Shown here piece after piece: positions 41,132 through 55,174 of a stretch of DNA of 64,000 nt; within the stretch, counting starts at the first letter, position 1; each line of letters opens with the position of its first letter. The stretch spans positions 64,001-128,000 of the forward strand of contig OZ244905.1 of assembly GCA_965221695.1 (NCBI GenBank). The letters are read 5' to 3'. This stretch comes from Gammaproteobacteria bacterium (lineage in GTDB: Bacteria > Pseudomonadota > Gammaproteobacteria > Eutrophobiales > Eutrophobiaceae). Made by a program: the position numbers and the translations under genes. The notes below the pieces were generated by a model. It made no database searches. It was not told where the DNA came from and saw nothing but the letters and a program-made list of their open reading frames with translations.

Positions 41132-41684
41132 ACTGAATCCGTGTTACGCATTGCAGGGCAGTGATGGACAGACGCTGGTTTTGCAGACGGATCGCCTGGC
41201 GCTGCAGGCGGTTAACAATGTTCGCAAGCTGCGCTTGCAAGCCCGGCCGGACACGGAGATAAACCCGGCGCCGCTTGAAGCGTTACTGGGCATGGCATTA
41301 CCGCAAAACCCGCGGGAAAAGGTCAACCATGAGCCGGCAGCCTACTGGCTGGCCCCCAATGACTGGCTGCTGCTCGACCCGGCGCCGGCCGGCGGCAATA
41401 TCAGCAATGTATTGCGGGAAGCAGCCGGTGGCGCCACGTGCGTTGTCACCGATGTGAGTGATGCCTGGAGCATCATAGAGATTTCCGGCGCGGATGCCGC
41501 GGCAAAATTGGCGGAAGGCTGCTCGGTAGACCTCGATGACGATGCATTCCCGGTTGGCCGGTATGCTTTGACCCGGTTGCAGCGCCTATCGGTAATCATA
41601 CACAGACTGGACGACAGGTCAAAATTCCACCTCCTGGTTGACCGCAACCTGGCGCGTTTTCTCTGGGATTGGTTACGCATGTGA
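41124..41684 (+). CDS. soxG: Sarcosine oxidase subunit gamma
   Basis: WLAPNDWL, DVSD, GCSVDL...F, A.FLW.WL; ATG 41124 overlaps soxA end. Confidence 0.88.
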   Translation: MSELNPCYALQGSDGQTLVLQTDRLALQAVNNVRKLRLQARPDTEINPAPLEALLGMALPQNPREKVNHEPAAYWLAPNDWLLLDPAPAGGNISNVLREAAGGATCVVTDVSDAWSIIEISGADAAAKLAEGCSVDLDDDAFPVGRYALTRLQRLSVIIHRLDDRSKFHLLVDRNLARFLWDWLRM

Positions 41685-43960
41685 ACCGGGACAACGCACC
41701 GGTTTTCAAGGACCTGGTCCTGGTTGGTGGAGGCCACGCCCATGTCACGGTATTGAAAAAGTTTGCAATGAAACCGGTGCCCGGGGTGCGCATTACCCTG
41801 GTTTGCCGGGACTTGCAGGCGCCTTACTCCGGCATGTTGCCGGGATATATAGCCGGGCATTACCTATTTGACGACGCGCATATCGACCTGGTTCCGCTGT
41901 GCCGATTTGCCCGCGCCCGGTTTTTCCACGATGAAGTCATCGGTCTGGATACGGATAACAGGAAGCTGATCTGCCGCAGCCGCCCGCACCTGGGTTATGA
42001 CATTTTGTCGATTAACGTCGGCTCAGCGCCCGATATCGCCGCAGTCCCCGGCGCTGACGGCAAGGTTATTCCCGTAAAACCCATTGATGGTTTCGTCGGT
42101 AACTGGCGCAAACTGTGTACGCGGATGTTGCAACGTCAAAATGGCGCGCGCATCGGTATCGTCGGCGCCGGGGCGGGCGGCGTCGAACTGGCGCTTGCAG
42201 TTCAATACCGGCTGAAAGCATTGCTGACCGGGAAATGGCCGGATAATACAAGTCCTGAATTTCACTTGTTTACCGATGCCGGCGAGGTCCTTACAACACA
42301 TAACCGCAATGTGCGCGCCAAGTTCCGGCGCGTGCTTAACGAGCGGAACATTCACGTACATACAGGGCACGAGGTGACCGAAGTCAGGGCCGGTGTGCTG
42401 CAATGTGCAAACGGCGCTACTTTTCAACTGGATGAGATCCTGTGGGTGACCAGGGCCCGCGCCCAGGACTGGCCGGGGCAGGCCGGCTTGGATGTTGATG
42501 AACAGGGCTTTATCAAAGTCAACAATACTCTCGAGTCCGTCTCGCATCCCGGCATCTTTGCGGCCGGCGATATCGCGCATATGATTAACCATCCCCGGCC
42601 CAAGTCCGGTGTATTTGCCGTGCGCCAGGGAGCGCCGCTGTCACTGAATCTCCGCAACAGGTTGTTAAATCGCTCCCTCAAACCCTATTTTCCCCAGAGA
42701 GAGTTTCTGAGCCTGATTTCCACGGGTGATCAGTATGCCATCGCCTCACGCTCCTGGTGGGCGCTGGAAGGGCGCTGGGTGTGGCGCTGGAAGGACTGGA
42801 TTGATCGCCGCTTCATGTGCAAGTACAACCGGCTTCCGGAAATGAAGGAGCCGGCACGGCGGGATATTCCCCGCGGCGTAGCCGATAAGGATGCGATCAG
42901 GGAGATATCCGCCATTGCGATGCGCTGTGGCGGGTGTGGCGCCAAGGTGGGCGCGACAGTGCTTGAAAATGCATTGGCTGGCCTTGAACCGATCTCCCGG
43001 GACGATGTGCTTATCGGGTTGCACGAACCTGATGACGCCGCCGTGGCGAGTGTGCCGGCAGGCAAGGTAATAGTGCATACGGTCGATGCCTTCCGTTCAT
43101 TTATCGATGATCCGTACATCTTCGGACAAGTGGCGGCCAATCATGCGCTGAGCGATTTATTTGCGATGGGCGCACAGCCGCAAACGGCGCTGGCAATCGT
43201 GACCGTTCCCTACGCGGACGAAAAGAAGCTTGAAGAGCTGCTGTCGCACCTGCTGCAAGGCGCTCTCAAGGCGCTGAACGGGGCTGGCGCGGCGCTGGTA
43301 GGCGGGCATACCTCCGAAGGCGAGGAACTGTCCCTGGGATTCGCCGTGAACGGGTTGGTTGATCGGGAGCAGATCCTGCGCAAACGCGGCCTGCGTGCCG
43401 GCGACAGAATCGTGCTGACCAAGCCCATTGGCACCGGGACACTGTTTGCCGCCGATATGCGGCACAAGGCTAAAGGCGCTTGGATTACGGCCGCGCTGGA
43501 TTGTATGCTGCAATCAAACCGGGAAGCTGCCAAGCGCCTGTTTGCCCATGGCGCCGCGGCCTGTACGGACGTCACCGGCTTCGGCCTGTTGGGACACCTG
43601 GTGGAAATGATCAAGCCATCTGGTGTCGATGTCGAGATTGACCTGGGCGCGATTCCGTGTCTTGATGGCGCAGAAGAGACGATTGCAGCCGGCATTTTCA
43701 GTTCCCTGCAGCCCCAGAACCTGCGACTGCGCCGGGCGATACGTGACGCTGAGAACGTATCAAAAGATACTCGCTACCCGTTGATATTTGACCCGCAAAC
43801 ATCCGGCGGACTGCTTGCCGGCGTTCCCGCAGAACAGGCCGAAGCCTGTGTTACCGCGCTGCGTGAATTGGGCTATGCCCAAACTGCAATTATCGGCAGG
43901 GTATTGCCTGAGAGTAATAGGCTGGAACCGGTTAGGCTTTTAAAAGCACAGTCTGAGTAA
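41681..43960 (+). CDS. selD: Selenide,water dikinase fused to an N-terminal FAD-dependent oxidoreductase
   Basis: N-term GGGHAH, YSGMLPG, GAGAGG, FAAGD, KSGVFAVRQG; C-term MRCGGCGAKVG, DDAA, VGGHT, TDVTGFGLLGHL, DPQTSGGLL. Confidence 0.93.
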   Translation: MNRDNAPVFKDLVLVGGGHAHVTVLKKFAMKPVPGVRITLVCRDLQAPYSGMLPGYIAGHYLFDDAHIDLVPLCRFARARFFHDEVIGLDTDNRKLICRSRPHLGYDILSINVGSAPDIAAVPGADGKVIPVKPIDGFVGNWRKLCTRMLQRQNGARIGIVGAGAGGVELALAVQYRLKALLTGKWPDNTSPEFHLFTDAGEVLTTHNRNVRAKFRRVLNERNIHVHTGHEVTEVRAGVLQCANGATFQLDEILWVTRARAQDWPGQAGLDVDEQGFIKVNNTLESVSHPGIFAAGDIAHMINHPRPKSGVFAVRQGAPLSLNLRNRLLNRSLKPYFPQREFLSLISTGDQYAIASRSWWALEGRWVWRWKDWIDRRFMCKYNRLPEMKEPARRDIPRGVADKDAIREISAIAMRCGGCGAKVGATVLENALAGLEPISRDDVLIGLHEPDDAAVASVPAGKVIVHTVDAFRSFIDDPYIFGQVAANHALSDLFAMGAQPQTALAIVTVPYADEKKLEELLSHLLQGALKALNGAGAALVGGHTSEGEELSLGFAVNGLVDREQILRKRGLRAGDRIVLTKPIGTGTLFAADMRHKAKGAWITAALDCMLQSNREAAKRLFAHGAAACTDVTGFGLLGHLVEMIKPSGVDVEIDLGAIPCLDGAEETIAAGIFSSLQPQNLRLRRAIRDAENVSKDTRYPLIFDPQTSGGLLAGVPAEQAEACVTALRELGYAQTAIIGRVLPESNRLEPVRLLKAQSE

Positions 43961-43979
43961 AGGATAGTACATTTTAGGG

Positions 43980-44201
43980 CTAAGCTACATCACGCATAGG
44001 TCTTACCTGCGGCGTCGGCAGGGTACGCCCCTCCGATTGGAAATGTTGCAAAACATCATCAACCACTTGGCATAACTCGCCATACAGCGACATTGGATTA
44101 TCTCCATGAATTCCGGTGATCAAATCGGGGCATTTTCCAATGTAGACTTGGTCTTCTTCGCTCCATTCAACCCATTTATGATAACGATCGCTTATTTTCA
44201 T
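43980..44201 (-). CDS. hicB: HicB-like antitoxin (short form)
   Basis: VEWSEED..YIG.CPDL..GIHG RNase H-like fold; 4-nt overlap with hicA. Confidence 0.75.
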   Translation of the reverse strand: MKISDRYHKWVEWSEEDQVYIGKCPDLITGIHGDNPMSLYGELCQVVDDVLQHFQSEGRTLPTPQVRPMRDVA

Positions 44202-44401
44202 TCTTTGATTCTCTCAATAGCCTTTTCTACTTGTTGCAACTGGTAAGGTTTGGCGTCGTCTCCTGGTTTGCCACTGATTGTTACCGCGCCAGGAAAGCTC
44301 TGGTGGGTGAACTTTCTATGAGCTCCTTTCCCTCCGCCTCTGATCTCTTCAAATCTTGCATCTTTGAGCATTTTTATCAGGTTTCGTATCTTTTTTGGCA
44401 C
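44198..44401 (-). CDS. hicA: HicA family toxin
   Basis: GKGAHRKFTH...VTISG..GDDAKPYQ; GTG start assumed. Confidence 0.85.
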   Translation of the reverse strand: MPKKIRNLIKMLKDARFEEIRGGGKGAHRKFTHQSFPGAVTISGKPGDDAKPYQLQQVEKAIERIKE

Positions 44402-44469
44402 AACAAGTCTTGAAAGTTGACGAGGTTGAGATATCAAATATTATACAACGGTTGTGGCTCGTCAGGAAG

Positions 44470-45420
44470 TCATAGATTATCCAGTAGGGCCTGCCACAAC
44501 TTGCTTTCGCGTTCCGGGGTGAACAAGTGTTTGCGTTTGCTTCCGTGCTCGCGCAGATGTTGCAGGAATTCTTGCTCGTTTTCCGCCCGCTGTAACAACG
44601 CGCATAATGTTTCGGTGTCTGTTACCGGATAATAACCGGGGTAATCATCGCCGAGCAGGCCGGTATTGCCGTCGATCGCGGAGGCAATCACGGGAACGCC
44701 TGCGACCAGGGCTTCGGAAATGACATTCGCGCCGCCTTCCATGGTTGAACTGTGAACCAGTGCATGGGTCTTCAGAAACTGCTCTCTGACCTGCCAGGCG
44801 CTGACCTCGCCGCGCCAATGATAACGGGGATTGATTGCCATCTCCGCGCGCCCCCGTGCAGCCCATTCAGCATTTTGCGCGTTGCCAAGATGGATTACCC
44901 GCAGGCGCGACCGTTGTGCAAGATTGCGCGCGGCGTAAGCGGTTCTGAACGGGTCTTTCTCTGCGCGTAAATGGCCGATAACGCAGACGTCGAACGTGCG
45001 TACTGAGGGACGACGCGGGCGCGCCGGCGGCGTTGCCGATTGATGGATAACATGCAGTTTGTCGTGGAATGAAGCCGGGAGCGCCCGATGTGCAAGGTCA
45101 TGCAGGCAGACCAGTGCATCGGCGGTCTGCATCGAACCCAGGGTTTCCTCCGCGTGACTGTATTGGAAGCGATAAATATCCGTTCCGGTCAGCGCAACCA
45201 CCAGCGGGTGGGTCGGATAGCGCGTACGAAAGCGCGCGATCGAAGTGGCGCTGCGCCAGGCATGCAATGCCACCATCATATCACCAGGCATCCCATCCCA
45301 GTCGGATTGTACTGATACCCTGTGGCCAATACCTCGCAGCAGTCGCGCCCAACGCGTTGCGGTCACGCGATTGCCCGTCTTCGATTGTTTTGTTGCGGGC
45401 GTGATCAGGATAATTTTCAT
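44470..45420 (-). CDS. senB: Selenosugar synthase (selenoneine pathway glycosyltransferase)
   Basis: ITP....GNRVTA.RWA, ALHAWRSA.SI, LTGTDIY, GHLR.EKDP, MEGGANV.SEA; next to senA and selD. Confidence 0.88.
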   Translation of the reverse strand: MKIILITPATKQSKTGNRVTATRWARLLRGIGHRVSVQSDWDGMPGDMMVALHAWRSATSIARFRTRYPTHPLVVALTGTDIYRFQYSHAEETLGSMQTADALVCLHDLAHRALPASFHDKLHVIHQSATPPARPRRPSVRTFDVCVIGHLRAEKDPFRTAYAARNLAQRSRLRVIHLGNAQNAEWAARGRAEMAINPRYHWRGEVSAWQVREQFLKTHALVHSSTMEGGANVISEALVAGVPVIASAIDGNTGLLGDDYPGYYPVTDTETLCALLQRAENEQEFLQHLREHGSKRKHLFTPERESKLWQALLDNL

Positions 45421-45549
45421 CCGCTGCGCACTGTCTGATGGCATTATTGTCAACAGGTTATCATAACTCCTCGGCAGTAACTCTCTATCCTGCGATGAAG
45501 CGAATGCGGTGAAGCGAATTGGTGACTGGTTCGGCTTGAGCTACAATAA

Positions 45550-46860
45550 ATGACGATGCAACAGCTAAGCGGCAAATATTTAAAGGAAATCATGCTGGAT
45601 GCCCATCAGCGTACGCTGGAGTTGATCGCTGGTCTTGATGACGCGCAGTTGATGGGGCCAAAGTTGCCCATCGTCAATCCGTTGCGCTGGGAAATAGGGC
45701 ATGTTGCCTGGTTTCATGAAAAGTTTATCTTACGCGATTTGTATGATTGCCCGCCGTTGCTGGCAAACGGTGATTCCCTCTATGATTCCATTGCCATCGA
45801 TCACGATCAGCGCTGGGATTTACCGTTGTTGAGCATGCGGGAGACGCTGGACTATATCCGGAACGTCCTGGACCACTGCCTGGCGCGGTTGCCGGATGGC
45901 GCGGCAGACCCGGAACAGAGTTATATCTACCGGTTTTCCACCTACCACGAGGACATGCATACCGAGGCCTATTGCTGGTCGCGCCAGACCCTGGCCTACC
46001 CGCAGCCCGCTTTTGCCGTTGCAGGCAAACCGGAGGATGCGGGCGCCGGGGCCTGGTCTGGGGATGTGGCGATCCCAGGCGGGGTGTTTTCTCCGGGCGC
46101 GGAGGAAGCGACGCCGTTTGTGTTTGATAACGAGAAATGGGCGCACGAGATAACCCTGGAACCGTTTCAGATAGCAAAAGCGCCGGTGACCAATGCCGAG
46201 TTCACGGAATTTGTCGCTGCCGGGGGCTACCTGTGCCGGGAGTTCTGGAGTGATGCAGGCTGGTCCTGGCGCAAGCAAGCCGACGCCCGGCATCCCGTAT
46301 ACTGGCAGAACGGCGGCAAGGATGCGTGGCGGTTGAGGTGGTTTGATGACATCGGGGAACTGCAGCCGCATCAGCCTGTTATCCATGTCAACTGGCATGA
46401 GGCCAATGCGTACTGCCGTTGGGCAGGCAGGCGTTTGCCGACGGAAGCGGAGTGGGAAGCGGCGGCGTTGGGCGAACCTGCCGATGACCACGGCAGGCTT
46501 GCTTTGAAGAAACGCAGTTACCCGTGGGGGGAACAACCTCCTGGTGAACTTCATGCCAATCTTGATGGCCGAGCGCTGGGCTGTGTCGATGTCGCATCCC
46601 TGCCGGCGGGGGACAGCGCGCTCGGCTGCCGGCAGATGCTAGGCAACGTATGGGAATGGACCGCATCCACGTTTGCGCCGTTCCCGGGCTTTTCGCCGGA
46701 TGCCTACAAAGAATATTCCGAACCGCTGTTTTATCACACGAAAGTATTGAAGGGTGGCGCCTGGGCTACCCGGAGCCGGATGATAACAGGCCGCTACCGT
46801 AATTTTTTCACGCCTGACCGGCGCGATGTGCTCGCGGGTTTCAGAACTTGTGCGCTTTAA
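45550..46860 (+). CDS. senA: Selenoneine synthase (EgtB-like DinB + FGE-sulfatase domains)
   Basis: NPLRWEIGHVAWF, HEDMHTEA metal motif, FDNE, RLPTEAEWE, GNVWEW, YRNFF..RRD..AGFR; context with senB/selD. Confidence 0.85.
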   Translation: MTMQQLSGKYLKEIMLDAHQRTLELIAGLDDAQLMGPKLPIVNPLRWEIGHVAWFHEKFILRDLYDCPPLLANGDSLYDSIAIDHDQRWDLPLLSMRETLDYIRNVLDHCLARLPDGAADPEQSYIYRFSTYHEDMHTEAYCWSRQTLAYPQPAFAVAGKPEDAGAGAWSGDVAIPGGVFSPGAEEATPFVFDNEKWAHEITLEPFQIAKAPVTNAEFTEFVAAGGYLCREFWSDAGWSWRKQADARHPVYWQNGGKDAWRLRWFDDIGELQPHQPVIHVNWHEANAYCRWAGRRLPTEAEWEAAALGEPADDHGRLALKKRSYPWGEQPPGELHANLDGRALGCVDVASLPAGDSALGCRQMLGNVWEWTASTFAPFPGFSPDAYKEYSEPLFYHTKVLKGGAWATRSRMITGRYRNFFTPDRRDVLAGFRTCAL

Positions 46861-46999: not shown

Positions 47000-48469
47000 A
47001 TGCGTGGTAAAAAACAACAGTTGAGACGCCTGCCATCCGTGGATCGCGTGCTGCGGGAAGCGTCTGATTTGGTCGAGCGTTGGGGACATGAGCGGGTGGC
47101 TGCTGCGATACGCAATACGCTAGAGCAGGTGCGCGCAAACATGGAAGAATTCGCTGCTCTCGACAAGTCAGCGCTATTGGAGCAAGTCGTTTCCATACTG
47201 GCGTGCAGGCTGGAACAGGAGTCCGCGGGCAGCCTGGTCAGTGTGTTCAACCTGACCGGCACCGTCCTGCATACCAACCTGGGCCGCGCGGTACTGCCGC
47301 GCGCGGCGCTGGACAACGCGCTGGCCTTAGCCCAGACACCGGTAAACCTGGAATTTGACCTGGAGAGCGGCACGCGCGGAGATCGCGATGAGCATATCGA
47401 ACCACTGATCTGCGAACTCTGCGGAGTGGAAGCGGCAACCGTGGTGAACAACAATGCCGCCGCAGTATTACTGGTATTGAATACTTTGGCAAAAGGCCGG
47501 GAGGTTCCGGTCTCACGCGGCGAACTGGTCGAGATTGGCGGTTCTTTTCGCATCCCGGATATCATGCAGAGTTCAGGCTGTGCGCTGGTTGAGGTCGGTA
47601 CGACCAACCGTACCCATTTGCAGGACTACCACAATGCGATCAATGACAGGACGGCGTTGTTGTTAAAAGTTCATGCCAGTAACTATCAGATCCGCGGGTT
47701 TACCCATAGTGTTCCCGAGAAAGAGTTGGCTCAACTGGCCCACCAGCGCGGGTTGCCGCTGGTTGTCGACCTGGGTAGCGGTAATCTGATCGACTTTGCC
47801 GCATTCAACCTGCCTGATGAGCCTACGGTCGCGCAAGCGCTGAAGAGTGGCGCCGATATTGTAACCTTCAGTGGAGACAAGCTGTTGGGCGGTCCCCAAT
47901 GCGGCATAATCGCCGGCGAACACACATTGATTGCCAGGATGAAGAACAACCCGCTGAAACGCGCGTTACGGGTTGACAAGATAACCCTGGCTGTCCTGTC
48001 AGAGGTGTTGAGACTCTATCAAAACCCCGCGCGGCTTGCACAAGATCTGCCGGCTCTGGCCGCGCTGACACGTCCACCGGATGCTATCCGTGCCCAGGCT
48101 GAGCGGATTGCCCCTGCGCTCGCGGTCGCGCTGGCGCCGCATTATCAAGTCGCGGTCTGCGAATGTCACAGCCAGGTCGGCAGCGGCGCGCTGCCGATTG
48201 ATACACTGGCAAGTTACGGGTTAAGGATCAGCGCGGTGGAAGAGTCGGATGAAGCAATCAGACTGCTGGCGGCATCCATGCGCCGGCTGCCGACACCGGT
48301 CATAGGTCGGATTAACCAAGGCGCTTATTTCCTGGATCTGCGCTGCCTGGATCGGGAGGAAGATTTTATTTCCCAGTTACGGAGTACTGGCCTCGCGGAT
48401 CATTTTCCGGAACATGCGCACGCCGATGATCTTGAGCATCAGCTTTTGGAAAAGGGACGGGGGCGTTGA
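47000..48469 (+). CDS. selA: L-seryl-tRNA(Sec) selenium transferase
   Basis: RRLPSVD, NLTGTVLHTNLGRA, VNNNAAA, SRGELVEIGGSFRIP, FSGDKLLGGPQ (PLP lysine). Confidence 0.96.
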   Translation: MRGKKQQLRRLPSVDRVLREASDLVERWGHERVAAAIRNTLEQVRANMEEFAALDKSALLEQVVSILACRLEQESAGSLVSVFNLTGTVLHTNLGRAVLPRAALDNALALAQTPVNLEFDLESGTRGDRDEHIEPLICELCGVEAATVVNNNAAAVLLVLNTLAKGREVPVSRGELVEIGGSFRIPDIMQSSGCALVEVGTTNRTHLQDYHNAINDRTALLLKVHASNYQIRGFTHSVPEKELAQLAHQRGLPLVVDLGSGNLIDFAAFNLPDEPTVAQALKSGADIVTFSGDKLLGGPQCGIIAGEHTLIARMKNNPLKRALRVDKITLAVLSEVLRLYQNPARLAQDLPALAALTRPPDAIRAQAERIAPALAVALAPHYQVAVCECHSQVGSGALPIDTLASYGLRISAVEESDEAIRLLAASMRRLPTPVIGRINQGAYFLDLRCLDREEDFISQLRSTGLADHFPEHAHADDLEHQLLEKGRGR

Positions 48470-49576
48470 GTTGGCTGCGGAGACATATCGGTTGATGCCG
48501 AGTTGCTCGCACAGGTCTTCGGACATGACCTGCAGCGGCCCATCCGACGGGATGCCGGTCGCATCGGCGATGCGCACCATGCGCTGAAAGTTCGATACCA
48601 CCCCCGCTGCGTCGATCATCGCCGCCGAACCCATCTTATCCGACAAGGCCTGGCGCGCGCGGTCCAGCTCAAAGCCGTCGACGCCCATGCAGGCATTCGT
48701 GAACTGCAGCAGTTCTTGGGAATCCGGTATACCCTTGATCTCGGTGCAGGCGGGATCAGTCAGGCCATCGAAGTCGATAGACCCGCCTGTCAGCTTGACG
48801 CTCTCACGGAGCATCACCACATGTGAGGAAGTTCAGTAAAAACAGCCGTTCAGCGCGGATACCCGGGCGGCCACAATCTCGGTCTGGGGACGGGTCAGGG
48901 TTCCCTGCGGCGGCCGGGTCATATTCCAGACCTCATGCACATCCAGGTAATGCGCGTCGGACTGGTCAAGCAGGTTGCGGACTTCGTCAGGAACCAGGCT
49001 CATGGCTCGGATCACGTAACCGCGCATGTCGCCTTCCCACAGGTCCGCATCCGGCCCGCTATCGACCCGCGTCGGCAGTATCGGCACCCAGGCGCCGTCG
49101 TAGGATACATTGGCCGGACGGTAGCGGCTGGGTTCGCCCGGTTGCGGTTCCGGCAGTTCATTCAAAGGCAGGCCCAGGCAACGGCAGAACTCGTCTATGG
49201 AGAACACCGAGACCAGGGTACCGATGATCTCAATATATTTTTCTTCACTGAGACCCTGTTGCATGATCCCGTCGAACCAGGATTTCGTCAGACGCGCCGA
49301 GTCGGTGGTGACCCGGTGGATCACTTCGATCACGACATCCGGAAGATCGGTGACCGTGTCATGGGCGCCGTCAACTGTGTAAGGCGACAACGATTCCTTG
49401 CGCCGGCTGCACAGTTTGCACTGAGGCGCCTGGCGTATTTCCGTGGCAATGTCAACACGCTCAGCGCCGGTGAACCAGGTTCCCGGCGCGGCAAGCCGTT
49501 GCCAGTAGCGGTTATGGCAAGCGGCAAAGTCTGCGCGTACCGGCCAGGGGGCGTTGCTGTAGTCGATCATACTCAT
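48377..49576 (-). CDS. AhpD/CMD-like alkylhydroperoxidase-related selenoprotein (399 aa, Sec at codon 248)
   Basis: Two in-frame ORFs separated only by TGA (48833-48835) within EIVAARVSALNGCFY-U-TSSH, matching the AhpD CxxC..H motif; SECIS-like hairpin downstream; adjacent to selA. Confidence 0.85.
48796..48816 (-). promoter_or_regulatory. Candidate bacterial SECIS element
   Basis: mRNA UGAUGCUC-C-GUGA-GAGCGUCA: 8-bp stem with G-initiated apical loop 25 nt after the UGA. Confidence 0.7.
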
Positions 49577-49626: not shown

Positions 49627-52011
49627 TCACTGCCCGTATGACCAGGTGAGCTGGGCGCCGATGGTGCGGGGCTGAACAGTATACTGCCTGATCGTGTCCG
49701 GTCCCGCAGAGCTGTCTATATCGATAATCGCACGCTTATCGGTTACGTTGTTTACGAAGATACGCAACCCCAGGTTGTCATGGCGGAAGTCGGCGCTGAG
49801 GTTTAACAGGAAATAATCGCCGATATCGATAAAACCGGGGAAGTTCTCATTGAAGAAAGTATCCGATTCTCCGACGTAAGAAAAATTGCCGCGCAGTGAC
49901 GCTTCGACATTGTTCAACATAGTGACCGGAAAGGTATACTCCATCATGCCGGAAAACGCCCATTCAGGCACTTTCGGTACGTTATCGCCGTCTCTTCCCA
50001 GAGGCGGGTTAAAGCCCGGCGCGGACAACCCGGGATCGATAGCCTGATCTTTGGTCAACTCTGCGTCGAGCCAGGCGGCGCCCAGATGCAGCGCAAATTG
50101 CTCTGTCGGCCGGGCGGACAATTCTACTTCCACCCCGTCAACTTCGGCCTCTGCTGCGTTCGAGATATACTCCACCGCGCCGGTAGGTTCGACTCCGGGG
50201 ACCTGTATATCATCCCAGAACATTTTGAAGTAGGTTGCATTCAGGATCACCCGATCATCGTGCCAGGCGGTTTTGGCGCCGAATTCAACACTAAGGACCT
50301 CATCGGACGTAAATGAGGAGGGAATGACGATCCCGAAGGCCGATGCGGTCGATGCATCGTTGATGCCGCCCTGCCTGAAACCGGTTGCCCCGCGCACATA
50401 GTACATCTGGTTGTCGTTCGGGGAGAATGACAGACTCGCATCCCAGGTGATCTCATCTTCTTTGGAGGTGTCATCAACAGAGACTATAGGCGTAGTCTGG
50501 ATCGGACCGCCGAACAGAGGCGGGATGGTAAACGCAACACTGCCCTGGAATGCCTGCAAGGTCTGTTCCAGGTTATCCTGTTTTGAATCGAAATAGCGCA
50601 CTCCGCCACCCAGACTGAATTGTTCAGTGATGTCAACATCAACATGGCCGAATAGCGCGAAGAATTCAAAATCGATATCCTGGCTGCGAGCGAACGCCAG
50701 GGAAGCGGCGGCTAATTCCGGATCAGTGATACATTCATCCCGGCTGAAGCAGACAGGAATGCCGGTAGCGATGTCTCCGGCCAGGATGTCCAACTCGGAG
50801 TAGGTCTCATCATCTTCATAGAAAAAACCGCCGACGAAATTGACAGGACCATCCAGATCGGAACTGAAGCGTATCTCTGCGTTGAGCACATCACGGTTTT
50901 GGAACTGGTGAATGCCGTAAGAGCCGAGCGGCGGGCCGAAAGCCGGGGGGAAACCGAATGACATGGCAGTGGGCGAAGTATCCTCGAGAAACTCAACATC
51001 ACGCTCAAATTTGGATACGGAAGCGAGAATCGATCCAAAACCCAGGTCGTAATCGATGGTCAGGCCATACATGTCTATATCATCGCCGTAAGGCTCTTGG
51101 TGGGCATTTGAAGTTTTTAGCTCGCCGTAACGACCGTCGAACGCAGGGATAAAATAGGGGAACGGCACGACGATGACCTGGGTCGGAGTGAGCAGACCAC
51201 TGGCTACCGGCGCATAGTGCTGGACGCCGTCAACATTCGTTTCCTGCATCTGGTAAAACGCGTCGATGGTCAGGTCTTCGTTCGGCGTCCAGCGCCCCAT
51301 GATACGGCCGCCGGTGATTTCTGAATCATTCACATTCTTTAGCTCCGTAACCCCGTTCAACCCGGCATACTGGTCTATGTAACCGCCTTGTTCCTTTTGC
51401 CAGCCCACCAGGCGCAAGGCCAGGGTGTCAGCTACCAGCGGCACATTGATGGCGGTGTTCACCGAGTAACCCTCGTCGCCATGTTCAACAGTTTCAATCC
51501 CTGCAGAGACAGACATTTCGAACCCGGAAGCATCCGGTTTGTTGGTGATAATCCTTACCACGCCGCTCATGGAACTGGCGCCGAACAAGGCGCCTTGGGG
51601 TCCTTTTAACACCTCAATGCGGGCAATATCATAGGCGCCTATATCGGGAGTGCGACCACCGCCGTCCTGGAAATTACCGCCGGTAATAGGCGATTCATCA
51701 AAATAGACGCCAACAGTGCTGTCGCCTGGCGAAGAAATACCCCGAATAATTAACTGGGTATCGCCGGCGCCCTGAGTGGCGTACTGCAGTGAAGGCTCCA
51801 GTCGAGAGAAATCCTCCAGCGAACGCAGGTTATGTTTTTCAATAGTGTCCCCACCGATGGCGCTGATTCCTCCAGCTATGTCTTGCGCCGATACTTCCCC
51901 CCGCTTGGTTGCGGTTACGATGATTTCCTCGATGGTCGTCTGGGCTGATATATCAGACAGATAGAGCGCACACAGAACCGCGCTGGCGAGATATTTGTTG
52001 ATGTTTTTCAT
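49627..52011 (-). CDS. TonB-dependent receptor
   Basis: IEEIIVTATKR, EVLKGPQGALFGASSMSG, barrel C-terminus. Confidence 0.95.
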   Translation of the reverse strand: MKNINKYLASAVLCALYLSDISAQTTIEEIIVTATKRGEVSAQDIAGGISAIGGDTIEKHNLRSLEDFSRLEPSLQYATQGAGDTQLIIRGISSPGDSTVGVYFDESPITGGNFQDGGGRTPDIGAYDIARIEVLKGPQGALFGASSMSGVVRIITNKPDASGFEMSVSAGIETVEHGDEGYSVNTAINVPLVADTLALRLVGWQKEQGGYIDQYAGLNGVTELKNVNDSEITGGRIMGRWTPNEDLTIDAFYQMQETNVDGVQHYAPVASGLLTPTQVIVVPFPYFIPAFDGRYGELKTSNAHQEPYGDDIDMYGLTIDYDLGFGSILASVSKFERDVEFLEDTSPTAMSFGFPPAFGPPLGSYGIHQFQNRDVLNAEIRFSSDLDGPVNFVGGFFYEDDETYSELDILAGDIATGIPVCFSRDECITDPELAAASLAFARSQDIDFEFFALFGHVDVDITEQFSLGGGVRYFDSKQDNLEQTLQAFQGSVAFTIPPLFGGPIQTTPIVSVDDTSKEDEITWDASLSFSPNDNQMYYVRGATGFRQGGINDASTASAFGIVIPSSFTSDEVLSVEFGAKTAWHDDRVILNATYFKMFWDDIQVPGVEPTGAVEYISNAAEAEVDGVEVELSARPTEQFALHLGAAWLDAELTKDQAIDPGLSAPGFNPPLGRDGDNVPKVPEWAFSGMMEYTFPVTMLNNVEASLRGNFSYVGESDTFFNENFPGFIDIGDYFLLNLSADFRHDNLGLRIFVNNVTDKRAIIDIDSSAGPDTIRQYTVQPRTIGAQLTWSYGQ

Positions 52012-52203: not shown

Positions 52204-53805
52204 ATGAATCTCGACAAACCCGGGACGACAACCATCGACGAGCTGCAGGACAGCCATAATCCGCAAATGACGCCTGCAGATCTGCGCGAGTTTATCGATC
52301 TGCTGCAGGAAGAAGATGAAATTATTGTTGTAAAAGAAGCCGTTAATCCACGTGATTTTGAGTTGTCCGCGATTGTGCAACATAGCGAGAACGGGCCGAA
52401 CAAAGCGGTATTATTTGAACATGTCAAGGGTTTTGACATGCCGGTGGTGGCGAACCTGTACGGAACGATTCACAGGACCGCGATGGCTCTGGGAATCACC
52501 CCCACTGATGAGCAGATCAGAAGATACTATGACGATCCCCGCGGCAGTCCCGGGGCGTTGGCCGGCATGTCGGGCCGCAAAATGAATGGGTTTTCAATGG
52601 AGCCGCGTTCACGCGCGGAACTTATCCTGATAAAAGAACTGTTGATGGATGCCGACCGGCGCGCCTACAACAAGGAAATGCCCTATGTCATGACCTCTTC
52701 GGCTTCCTGTCAGGAGGTGGTAATCAAGAAGAATATCGATGTGTTGGGATTGTTGCCGGTAGTCTGGCACCTTAAACAGGATGCCGGCCCCTACATCACA
52801 CCTGGCGGATTGGTGCAAAAAGATCCCGACAACGGTCTGCTGAATATTGGCGTGCGGCGGCACATGGTCAGTCATGAGCGCTATGCGCCAAATCAGATCG
52901 GCGTCCAAATCGGCACGCAGACGCCAGGCGGCAAGATCATCCAGAAATATCATGACCGTGGCGAGCCCTGCCCGATGGCGATCTGCCTGGGACCGGATCC
53001 AGCCACCCAGATTTTATCGACTTATTCATCGCCCCACTATTGGATGGAGCCTCCGTATAGTGAGTTCGACATGACCGGGGTCATTCGCAATAAACCGTTG
53101 GAACTGGTGAAGTGCAAGACCATCGACCTGGAAGTACCTGCCAATACGGAAATCGTGATCGAAGGTTTGTCACCACCGCCGCCGGATAACAAGATTGATG
53201 AAGGTCCCATGATGGAGTTTACCGATTATTCGGGCACAGTGGTCGAGGCAATTCCTTATATGGAGGTTACTGCTATCACTCACAGGAACAACCCCATATT
53301 TCATACCTGTATGTCCGGTAATTCCGAAGAACACCGGGTGGGTTGCATCTGGTCTTTCTTCGGCTATGAACAGATGGGGTTGGAATTGATCAAGAAGCAG
53401 TTTCCCCATGTCGTGGATATCGGTATTTTTGCCGGTTCCCACGGTTTTCACGCGGTCGTTTCAATGAAGAAGACCTACGAGGGCGAGGATCGGCAAGTGC
53501 TCCAGTATCTGCTGGCTACCCAGTACTTCAAGTTTGTTACCGTAGTGGACGATGATATCGATCCCCATAACAGCGAACAGGTGGAATGGGCAAAAGCCAC
53601 CCGCGCCGGACGCCGGCCCGAGGATTACATCATCTCACCGCAGATGCCCACCTGGGAGATGGACCCGGAGATCGACCAGCACTGGCGGGTCACCAAGCTG
53701 GGAATCCTGGCCACCCGCGACATTAATGAGAACTATACTCAACCGGCGCCGGACTTGGCAATGATGGAAAAAATGCGCGCGGTATTTGAAAAGTATGTGG
53801 CTTAG
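52204..53805 (+). CDS. UbiD family (prFMN-dependent) decarboxylase
   Basis: DLREFIDLL, AVLFE, DAGPYIT, NIGVRR, LEVPANTEIVIEG, EGPMMEFTDY, VVDDDID. Confidence 0.9.
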   Translation: MNLDKPGTTTIDELQDSHNPQMTPADLREFIDLLQEEDEIIVVKEAVNPRDFELSAIVQHSENGPNKAVLFEHVKGFDMPVVANLYGTIHRTAMALGITPTDEQIRRYYDDPRGSPGALAGMSGRKMNGFSMEPRSRAELILIKELLMDADRRAYNKEMPYVMTSSASCQEVVIKKNIDVLGLLPVVWHLKQDAGPYITPGGLVQKDPDNGLLNIGVRRHMVSHERYAPNQIGVQIGTQTPGGKIIQKYHDRGEPCPMAICLGPDPATQILSTYSSPHYWMEPPYSEFDMTGVIRNKPLELVKCKTIDLEVPANTEIVIEGLSPPPPDNKIDEGPMMEFTDYSGTVVEAIPYMEVTAITHRNNPIFHTCMSGNSEEHRVGCIWSFFGYEQMGLELIKKQFPHVVDIGIFAGSHGFHAVVSMKKTYEGEDRQVLQYLLATQYFKFVTVVDDDIDPHNSEQVEWAKATRAGRRPEDYIISPQMPTWEMDPEIDQHWRVTKLGILATRDINENYTQPAPDLAMMEKMRAVFEKYVA

Positions 53806-53827
53806 TGGCGCGTAATGCGCGCCCCGG

Positions 53828-55174
53828 TCAGAAATCAGGGATCTTGTCGACACCCGGCACTATCGCCACCTGTTCAAAGTCTTCGCCGAAAGGCCGGGTG
53901 GCATCGATGCCCATGACGGAATAGCTGCCGTCGTCTGGCGCTGAAGGATCGAGTTGCCAGAGGGTCATACGCGGCAGGATCATTACGTCTTTCTGCGCTT
54001 GCGCCCGGGTACAGATCGCCCACATAACCTTGTCCATGTCATGGATATCGATATCTTCGTCCACAACCACGGCAAGTTTGCTGCCTTGGGATCCCAGCAG
54101 GGTTGCCAGGACTTGCCTGGCCTCGTTCCTGGCATATTGTTTCATCGCGACGATGCACATCAGCCCGACCCCCCCGGCGCCGTGAAAATGCGTCCGTTTG
54201 ACACCGGCAAACTTGCGTTTTAGCATGGCGTAGCAGGAGGCTTCCATCGGGATCATTTTCAATACGTGGTTGTCGGTTACCGGCACGCCGCTCATTCCGG
54301 CAAGCAGGATAGGATCGTGGCGGTGGGTGATCGCGCTAACCTCCAGAACGGGTTTGGGCGACCCTTGAGTGTAGTAGCCGGTGTATTCTCCAAACGGGCC
54401 TTCATGTTCCCGGATACCAGGCAGCATGCTGCCCTCAATAATAATTTCCGCGCTAGCGGGCACTTCCAGGTCTACGGTCTGACATTTGACCACCTCCAGC
54501 GGTTCGTCCAGCAATGCGCCGGCCAGGGTCAGCTCGTCAACGCCATAGCCCGCTTCCCACTGGGTCGCAATCAAGGCGCTGGGAGCAACTCCCAGAGCAA
54601 TAGCGAGTTCCAGCGGTTCATCCAGCGCTTCCGCTTTCCGGTAATGTACTCCCAGGTGATGAGGCGGTGGCGACAGCACGCCCAGGCGTCGTTTGTCCAG
54701 CACCTGGTGGCGGTATATGGAGGCATTTTTGCCGCCATCTTCGGGATCTTTGCTGATAGCGACACCCAAGGTGATGAACGGGCCGCCGTCCAGTTCACAA
54801 TAGGTTGGGACGGGAAAAGCGGTTAAATCCGCCTCGTCTCCCAGGTGTATCACCTCGTTGCAGGGTCCTTGTTCGATTAGCCGATGTTCCTTCAGGTTGT
54901 CGATGGCATCGAGATATTTGTTATTGGCCTCCAGTTCGGTCGTCTCCAGCGCCTCCAGCATCAAGCGCCGGTTTGCGAACAGTCCGCCCGCAACCCGCAT
55001 CTTATGACCTTTAATGTTCTCGAATAACAGGGCTGGTCCTTCATCGCCCATATCCGAGGCTTTGCGCAAGTAGGCTGCCAACTCATATTCCAGCGCCACC
55101 TCATTGCTGATCCGAACCAGTTTGCCGCTTGCTTCCAGATGCTCAAGGAAGCCGCGCAGGTCTTTGAAGGCCAT
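53828..55174 (-). CDS. UbiD family decarboxylase
   Basis: DLRGFL, DGGPFIT, NASIYR, EVPASAEIIIEG, EGPFGEYTGY, VVDEDID, GIDAT. Confidence 0.93.
   Translation of the reverse strand: MAFKDLRGFLEHLEASGKLVRISNEVALEYELAAYLRKASDMGDEGPALLFENIKGHKMRVAGGLFANRRLMLEALETTELEANNKYLDAIDNLKEHRLIEQGPCNEVIHLGDEADLTAFPVPTYCELDGGPFITLGVAISKDPEDGGKNASIYRHQVLDKRRLGVLSPPPHHLGVHYRKAEALDEPLELAIALGVAPSALIATQWEAGYGVDELTLAGALLDEPLEVVKCQTVDLEVPASAEIIIEGSMLPGIREHEGPFGEYTGYYTQGSPKPVLEVSAITHRHDPILLAGMSGVPVTDNHVLKMIPMEASCYAMLKRKFAGVKRTHFHGAGGVGLMCIVAMKQYARNEARQVLATLLGSQGSKLAVVVDEDIDIHDMDKVMWAICTRAQAQKDVMILPRMTLWQLDPSAPDDGSYSVMGIDATRPFGEDFEQVAIVPGVDKIPDF

Follow-up and report, generated by a model that had tools for sequence, protein, structure and literature searches.

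An AhpD-related selenoprotein gene of the NF041238 family, interrupted by an in-frame UGA and convergent with selA

Introduction

What does a TGA codon mean when it parts two open reading frames (ORFs) that lie in one frame, and when it falls where an AhpD-like protein would carry the second cysteine of its active site? The question is raised by positions 48377-49576, minus strand, of the stretch of DNA analysed here (the window: 64,000 nt, positions 64,001-128,000 of contig OZ244905.1, assembly GCA_965221695.1; all locus coordinates are window-based). A preliminary description had read the two ORFs as a single 399-aa selenoprotein. Our analysis confirms a real selenoprotein gene, of a known family that gene callers routinely truncate, and supports the interpretation given below. 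The segment is one gene of the already curated selenoprotein family NF041238, not two genes. We are highly confident that its product is a single 399-residue cytoplasmic protein of this family, in which the UGA is decoded as selenocysteine (Sec) under the direction of a hairpin, and which is most likely an AhpD-like thiol/selenol oxidoreductase.

Results

One gene read through a TGA codon

The gene and its parts are the following.
48377..49576, minus strand: whole selenoprotein gene, 399 codons plus TAA stop, from the read-through translation; family NF041238 AhpD_rel_CFYUT
48833..48835, minus strand: in-frame UGA, U248; same-column TGA in 22 of 22 relatives' loci
48796..48816, minus strand: selenocysteine insertion sequence (SECIS) hairpin, 8-bp stem UGAUGCUC/GAGCGUCA, loop CGUGA; begins 16 nt past the UGA
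48821..48880, minus strand: active-site stretch Glu233 ... Cys245-Phe-Tyr-Sec248 ... His252; invariant residues with the spacing of the AhpD relay
49409..49420, minus strand: N-terminal Cys53-Lys-Leu-Cys56 (CKLC, residues 53-56), from an alignment of 27 sequences

The frame runs from an ATG at 49576 to a TAA at 48377-48379, and its sole interruption is the TGA at 48835-48833. The upstream ORF (48833-49576, minus strand, 247 aa) terminates in ...EIVAARVSALNGCFY (...RVSALNGCFY) at this TGA. The downstream ORF (48377-48820, minus strand, 147 aa) has a GTG start at 48820, and between the two lie the codons ACT TCC TCA CAT (Thr-Ser-Ser-His), followed by the GTG in the same frame. Translating the TGA as U gives 399 residues with U248 in the motif N-G-C-F-Y-[TGA]-T-S-S-H, and this read-through reproduced the coordinates and the motif of the preliminary description. 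Contigs from three public runs (X1-X3) span the TGA, with no alternative letter listed there.

When read through, the protein matches NF041238 (AhpD_rel_CFYUT, alkylhydroperoxidase-related (seleno)protein), an equivalog model named for its CFYUT motif, at 472.2 bits against a cut-off of 175, over residues 13-365 and model positions 1-356 of 357; in the genome search the gene scored 463.9 bits with one TGA inside. Taken singly, the two ORF pieces cover model positions 1-238 and 245-356, and the match is complete only in the read-through. The Pfam CMD domain (PF02627) behaves in the same way: it scores 28.3 bits against a gathering threshold of 23 over residues 221-258, straddling the TGA, and is absent from either piece scanned alone. 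That the full NF041238 match and the CMD match arise only across the TGA is what one would expect of the one split protein that had been described. The motif itself, in which the fourth place is U or Cys, reads NGCFY-[TGA]-TSSH here and is the same in 22 of 22 relatives. Moreover, the invariant Thr249 and the catalytic His252 fall between the TGA and the earliest possible start codon of the downstream ORF.

A table in a 2026 review (PMC13188914) maps NF041238 to 'hypothetical protein 1' of the 2005 Sargasso Sea selenoproteome, and the entry for that protein in the 2005 study (PMC1088965) gives four sequences, a conserved CXXU motif and a SECIS-like stem-loop. The match to NF041238 together with this description means that the family is already known and curated. 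It has been in print since 2005, which the author of the preliminary description could not know.

The TGA is maintained across homologues

We then asked what stands at the UGA column elsewhere. Among 61 related genomes, 19 had an above-cut-off match, and all 35 matches hold exactly one TGA and no other stop; at the loci excised from relatives the TGA lies in the context N-x-C-F-Y-[TGA]-T in 22 of 22. A scan of one genome per species, with loci taken partly from the same genomes as the 61-genome set and many of them from close kin, gave 45 loci, of which 3 stop short of the column and 42 reach it. The codon at these 42 is TGA in 40, TGC in one and TGT in one (L078 and L079), and TAA or TAG in none, and the frame downstream is open for 115-157 codons wherever the contig continues. 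The preliminary description had looked to homologues with Cys or UGA at this column for support and to TAA/TAG endings for refutation; only the former occur at these loci. The distribution of the family across the class is patchy: when 400 genomes were sampled evenly from the class, it was present only in the genome of the window (G000) and in one other, which carries four copies, each with one TGA.

In protein collections the gene is seen mostly in pieces. Among the best 120 hits of a first search, 116 are forms of 226-288 aa that span only 57-62% of the query, and the remaining 4 span 92-93% of it and carry C-[YF]-Y-C-T-S-G-H, with Cys at the column. We also searched 1.84 billion cluster representatives with a profile, which gave 494 proteins at E <= 1e-30. 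Among the best 150 of these 494, a pattern match shows 79 to terminate at N-x-C-x-Y, and inspection by eye adds about 20, so that at least 99 stop short of the column. No fewer than 29 run the full length and have Cys in this position; a single protein has Gly, and another no longer has the motif. The 247-aa piece of the window gene is itself on public record as a called protein, and the exact 147-aa downstream product is absent from the public protein collection searched. These records fit the earlier statement that gene calling splits the gene. The stop had also been placed on the second Cys of a CxxC, and Cys is indeed found there in solved AhpD-like proteins as well as in the 4 full-length homologues. 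The five Cys forms cluster together (support 100/100) in a tree built from 30 sequences; under midpoint rooting, with the root not established, this cluster nests among Sec forms.

A hairpin constrained at synonymous sites

The 21-nt hairpin at 48796-48816 (minus strand) folds at -10 kcal/mol (z -4.23), and none of 200 shuffles folds as well. Its 5-nt loop, CGUGA, opens 24 nt after the UGA and has G as second nucleotide. The criteria for bacterial SECIS elements (bSECIS) listed in the review cited above (PMC13188914) are an apical loop of 3-9 nt, an upper stem of 4-16 bp, a G in the first two loop positions, a spacing of 16-37 nt between UGA and loop, and a minimum free energy of -7.5 kcal/mol or lower; the hairpin, with its 5-nt loop, G second, 8-bp stem, 24-nt spacing and -10 kcal/mol, falls within all of them. 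The hairpin of the preliminary description is thus present and fits the bSECIS definition, with one small correction: the loop, which had been called G-initiated and placed at 25 nt, opens at 24 nt and has G second.

Across an alignment of 29 homologues, down to about 40% protein identity, pairing at the five apical positions of the stem is seen in 144 of 145 cells. Constraint on the codons themselves was measured as codon entropy (H) in 30 sequences of <90% identity, at the 53 columns where the conserved residue is four- or six-fold degenerate. The two lowest values belong to Leu256 (CTC in 29 of 30, H 0.21) and Arg257 (CGT in 27 of 28, H 0.22), the next being 1.01, and these two codons form the top of the hairpin. 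Both the hairpin and the Arg are missing from two Cys-form loci. Under a covariance model these Cys-form loci score 19 and 17 bits, and the two Sec genes of this genome, on which the model was trained, score 86 and 74 bits. One metagenomic run has several contigs, otherwise unlike, whose match is confined to positions ~48799-48859, a segment made up of the hairpin, the UGA and the CFY codons. Judged by its conservation, and not by the single sequence, the hairpin stands beyond chance. Folding, apical pairing, synonymous constraint and the bSECIS criteria agree with a SECIS element just 3' of the UGA, as had been suggested. Rfam at gathering thresholds gave no match in the window.

An AhpD-type relay with Sec predicted in second position

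Glu233, Cys245, Tyr247, Sec248 and His252 do not vary among 27 full-length sequences. Their spacing equals that of the proton relay reported for AhpD, Glu118/Cys130/His132/Cys133/His137 in Mycobacterium tuberculosis and Glu36/Cys48/Tyr50/Cys51/His55 in PA0269, according to the account of the relay in PMC3141380. The active-site stretch aligns to the CxxC of the solved structures 2oyo, 6k40 and 3c1l, and the family profile finds the solved AhpD 6k40 with an E value of 3.3e-13 over residues 163-341. In the downstream half, Arg335, Ala337, Asp338 and Gly341 are invariant in the aligned sequences. An AlphaFold2 (AF2) model (pLDDT 93.7, pTM 0.93) shows two tandem all-helical AhpD-like domains, the fold expected, and its best solved structural match is Sestrin2. 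From relay, profile and fold together we take the protein to be a fusion of two AhpD-like modules, in which the C-terminal domain, on alignment, holds the complete relay with Sec in the second position of the dyad.

The N-terminal half carries the CKLC that had been noticed before, at residues 53-56; Cys53, Cys56 and Lys60 are kept in at least 90% of the 27 sequences, and one locus (L085) is without the motif. An hhalign comparison of the N- and C-terminal halves gave an E value of 0.033 and a probability of 1.5%, with CKLC falling weakly on CFYU, which is at most suggestive. No transmembrane segment was found in the protein, the top 19-residue hydropathy being 1.34. Beyond the family model lies a C-terminal tail, residues 366-399 (48380-48481, minus strand; ...LFQKLMLKIIGVRMFRKMIRE...), which is basic and hydrophobic and predicted to be helical; it is found in 18 of 27 aligned members and is absent from both Cys forms.

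The genome carries the Sec machinery

Two of the genes concerned lie in the window.
47000..48469, plus strand: selA, selenocysteine synthase; TIGR00474 583.7 bits, Pfam SelA 524 bits
41669..43960, plus strand: oxidoreductase-SelD fusion, 763 aa; TIGR03169 494.8 bits, TIGR00476 303.9 bits; SelD part 42920-43837

The others are found elsewhere in the genome. selB lies at C1:1496859-1498727 (296 bits against a cut-off of 242), and the tRNA-Sec gene, selC, 35 nt behind it (77 bits; anticodon tca by ARAGORN); ARAGORN found no tRNA within the window. Only one SelD scored above the cut-off in the genome search, and it is the one inside the oxidoreductase-SelD fusion, the selenophosphate donor for Sec. 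The genome thus has selA, selB, selC and selD, including the selB and selC whose lack the preliminary description had named as a reason to abandon its proposal. The stops of long open frames in the genome are 936 TGA, 649 TAA and 363 TAG; because TGA is the commonest, an alternative genetic code is not the explanation. A 406-aa ORF directly upstream of selB (L001 235-1455) appears Rieske-type by eye. A covariance-model match 400 nt upstream of selB (24 bits) was rejected as spurious; it lies in another frame within this 406-aa ORF, and its helix is unmatched.

A second CFYUT copy matches at G000:C1:1799123-1800181, also with one TGA; the gene extends over G000:C1:1799018-1800217 (L020 1399-2595, minus strand) and scores 437 bits. 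Its final TGA overlaps the ATG of a 374-aa ORF (L020 278-1399) for which there was no Pfam or NCBIfam match, and an AraC-type regulator lies upstream of it. A crude and non-exhaustive scan of the genome for Sec genes began with 13181 raw candidates, of which a coding filter kept 383 and a subsequent hairpin filter 23. It recovered both CFYUT paralogues and a third candidate (L096, G000:C1:1593043-1593513), which encodes a 156-aa AhpC/TSA protein (PF00578, 59.6 bits, residues 8-126) whose Pfam match spans an in-frame TGA in FYRGHW-U-PFC (WUPFC) and whose hairpin passed the filter. This protein resembles the known 'Prx-like UxxC' type; it could serve the AhpD-like proteins as a redox partner. 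With this gene the idea that the CFYUT family is the sole use of Sec in the genome was rejected; by these signatures the organism has at least three selenoprotein genes, two CFYUT and one Prx-like UxxC. Three other candidates of the scan that were checked had no family match, and for the Sec-type formate dehydrogenase FdhA, searched with one family model, there was no above-cut-off match and none with in-frame stops.

Neighbouring genes

selA is convergent with the selenoprotein gene, as the preliminary description had it, and the two ORFs overlap by 93 nt (48377-48469). Both proteins have C-terminal tails past their family models, and the closest relative (L076) has a similar selA overlap by tblastn coordinates. 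The order in this selenium stretch is oxidoreductase-SelD fusion, SenB, SenA, selA and selenoprotein gene. The part at 41669-46860 is a complete selenoneine-type cluster, with SenB (TIGR04348, 412 bits, minus strand) and SenA (NF041186, 498 bits), and lies 1.38 Mb from selB and selC; its sen genes match the selenoneine cluster as outlined in a 2022 preprint. Since there is only one above-cut-off SelD in the genome, the single SelD-fusion enzyme probably feeds both Sec and selenoneine synthesis. The arrangement, SenA and SenB included, recurs only within the genus. selA lies at most 4 kb from a family member in 13 of 44 loci, and in three lineages at greater distance (L064, L065, L084) a family member has selA, or selB with selA, nearby.

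A TonB-dependent receptor gene (49627-52011, same strand) ends 50 nt upstream of the selenoprotein start, and the pairing is retained in several genomes of the genus. The sole promoter-like site on this strand is at 52104-52076, upstream of the receptor gene, and none lies between the receptor and selenoprotein genes. Promoter and terminator counts are not in excess over shuffles, so that co-transcription of the two genes is only a guess. UbiD-family decarboxylase genes lie near CFYUT genes in the window (52204-55174; two genes, TIGR00148 274 and 366 bits) and at L067 (6589-7953), L069 (5228-6568) and L087 (2168-3536), and major facilitator superfamily (MFS) transporter genes lie close downstream in L067, L079, L083, L085, L086 and L088.

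Discussion

The protein encoded here is, judging from its motif and by analogy with AhpD, most likely a thiol/selenol oxidoreductase. In the scenario that we propose, SelB with Sec-tRNA(Sec) would read the UGA at 48833-48835 as Sec, directed by the hairpin at 48796-48816 within the coding sequence, and we infer that Sec is actually inserted at this codon. The selenolate of Sec248 would then attack a hydroperoxide or an oxidised partner protein as its oxidised substrate; by analogy, Sec would here take the place of the attacking residue in the AhpD mechanism. Cys245 would resolve the intermediate into a selenenylsulfide, which a cellular reductant would re-reduce. The label 'peroxidase/reductase' used in the preliminary description is a suggestion drawn from the motif.

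Several results weigh against this interpretation. The counts of TGA-bearing loci overstate independence because many of the genomes counted are close kin. The model for bona fide AhpD (TIGR00777) gave 15.2 bits against a cut-off of 191.95 and the single-domain peroxidase-related model (TIGR01926) 36 bits against 82; on these scores the protein is not an AhpD orthologue. At 18 distant loci, 97 flanking ORFs were scanned with Pfam, and neither an ahpC-like partner nor any other constant neighbour came to light. As for the hairpin, its 71-nt context folds like shuffles (z 0.05), and the outer three stem pairs fail in about 11 of 29 sequences, for some of which a bulged-A register or an alternative helix is possible. 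The stem covariation score was equalled by 116 of 500 shuffles and is not significant, 'further pair types' alone standing out (16 of 500). Covariation is weak because the stem core hardly varies, and we therefore relied on the synonymous-site constraint instead.

How else could the locus be explained? If there were two genes, the TGA would be a true stop and the 147-residue ORF would initiate by itself at the GTG at 48820. This is how automatic gene calling sees the locus, with the 247-aa piece on public record for the same contig and 116 of the 120 best database hits being such pieces, and TGA is the commonest stop codon of the genome. However, the earliest codon at which the second gene could start comes after the invariant Thr249 and His252, both the CMD domain and the NF041238 model cross the TGA, the Cys homologues are uninterrupted, none of 42 loci has TAA or TAG at the column, and the exact 147-aa product is missing from the public collection searched; we consider two genes extremely unlikely. 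A Cys-type AhpD-related gene lately broken by a nonsense mutation would need one base change only, from TGC or TGT to TGA at the Cys codon. We give such a pseudogene practically no credence: the TGA is kept in 35 of 35 related-genome matches, in the second paralogue, in the four copies of a distant genome and in 40 of 42 loci, the frame downstream is open and conserved throughout with no relaxed constraint (Arg335, Ala337, Asp338 and Gly341 being invariant), and synonymous constraint at the hairpin codons goes together with the TGA form.

Read-through with another residue, for instance Cys or Trp by near-cognate or suppressor reading, would be compatible with the minority clade in which Cys functions at the column. 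It appears very improbable in a genome that has the complete selA, selB, selC and selD set and in which TGA otherwise ends most long frames; the gene has a SECIS-type hairpin at the right distance, and at least one other gene bears a Sec signature, the 156-aa AhpC/TSA gene with WUPFC and a Pfam match across its TGA. The function leaves somewhat more latitude. The protein could be a selenoprotein outside peroxide defence, its CxxU reducing another substrate; it might, for instance, be a reductive dehalogenase acting on halogenated aromatics or a reductase for a small selenium/sulfur metabolite. No ahpC-like partner is nearby, genes for UbiD-family aromatic-acid decarboxylases recur close by (the window, L067, L069, L087), MFS transporters and a TonB-dependent receptor are frequent neighbours, and the gene adjoins the selenoneine cluster in the genus. 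Nevertheless, these neighbourhoods are inconstant, with UbiD in 3 of 18 distant loci scanned and sen genes adjacent only within one genus, and the relay residues are exactly those of the peroxide-reducing AhpD, so that such a role seems unlikely.

The significance of an AhpD-like selenoprotein gene at this locus lies mainly in annotation. Gene calls, both in this genome and in most public records, list a truncated 'hypothetical protein' of 247 residues together with an orphan piece; read correctly, the locus again yields an intact redox enzyme. For biochemistry, the two-domain model, sestrin-like and of high confidence, is a concrete starting point, and the knowledge of Sec decoding is unchanged by this gene.

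Relation to known proteins

Compared with AhpD of M. tuberculosis (1gu9) and PA0269, the window protein has Sec for the second Cys, two domains and no adjacent ahpC. It differs from human Sestrin2 (5cuf, 5dj4), its best structural match, in that its canonical site is C-terminal and not N-terminal and consists of a Cys/Sec dyad and not a single Cys; neither sequence similarity to sestrins nor a sestrin Pfam hit was detected for the protein. The likeness may reflect two independent fusions of the AhpD-type dimer.

The AhpD-fold debrominase Bmp8 (6ohi), which dehalogenates by means of a catalytic Cys, gave no sequence match to the family at E <= 1. Together with the Sec-dependent deiodinases, Bmp8 offers an analogy for a halogenated-aromatic substrate. 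One could imagine a Sec-using bacterial counterpart of the sestrin architecture that reduces a specific small molecule, either a halogenated aromatic or an oxidised metabolite of the selenoneine pathway, and not bulk peroxide; one domain would have the full Cys/Sec relay and the other a modified CxxC...K site, and electrons might pass between the domains. We regard this as improbable.

The single-domain AhpD-like selenoproteins ('AhpD-like 1', COG2128/TIGR01926, CxxU) share the AhpD fold and have Sec second in the dyad, and they are among the commonest selenoproteins in marine metagenomes (PMC2398784). They have about 180 residues; the window protein has a further N-terminal domain, about 160 residues long, which contains a CxxC of its own. 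To NF041238, the 'hypothetical protein 1' of the Sargasso Sea, the likeness extends to an end-to-end match of the hidden Markov model, the CFYUT motif, the Sec in CxxU and a SECIS directly downstream. There is no difference of substance: the window protein adds a 34-residue tail, and its gene abuts selA and the selenoneine cluster.

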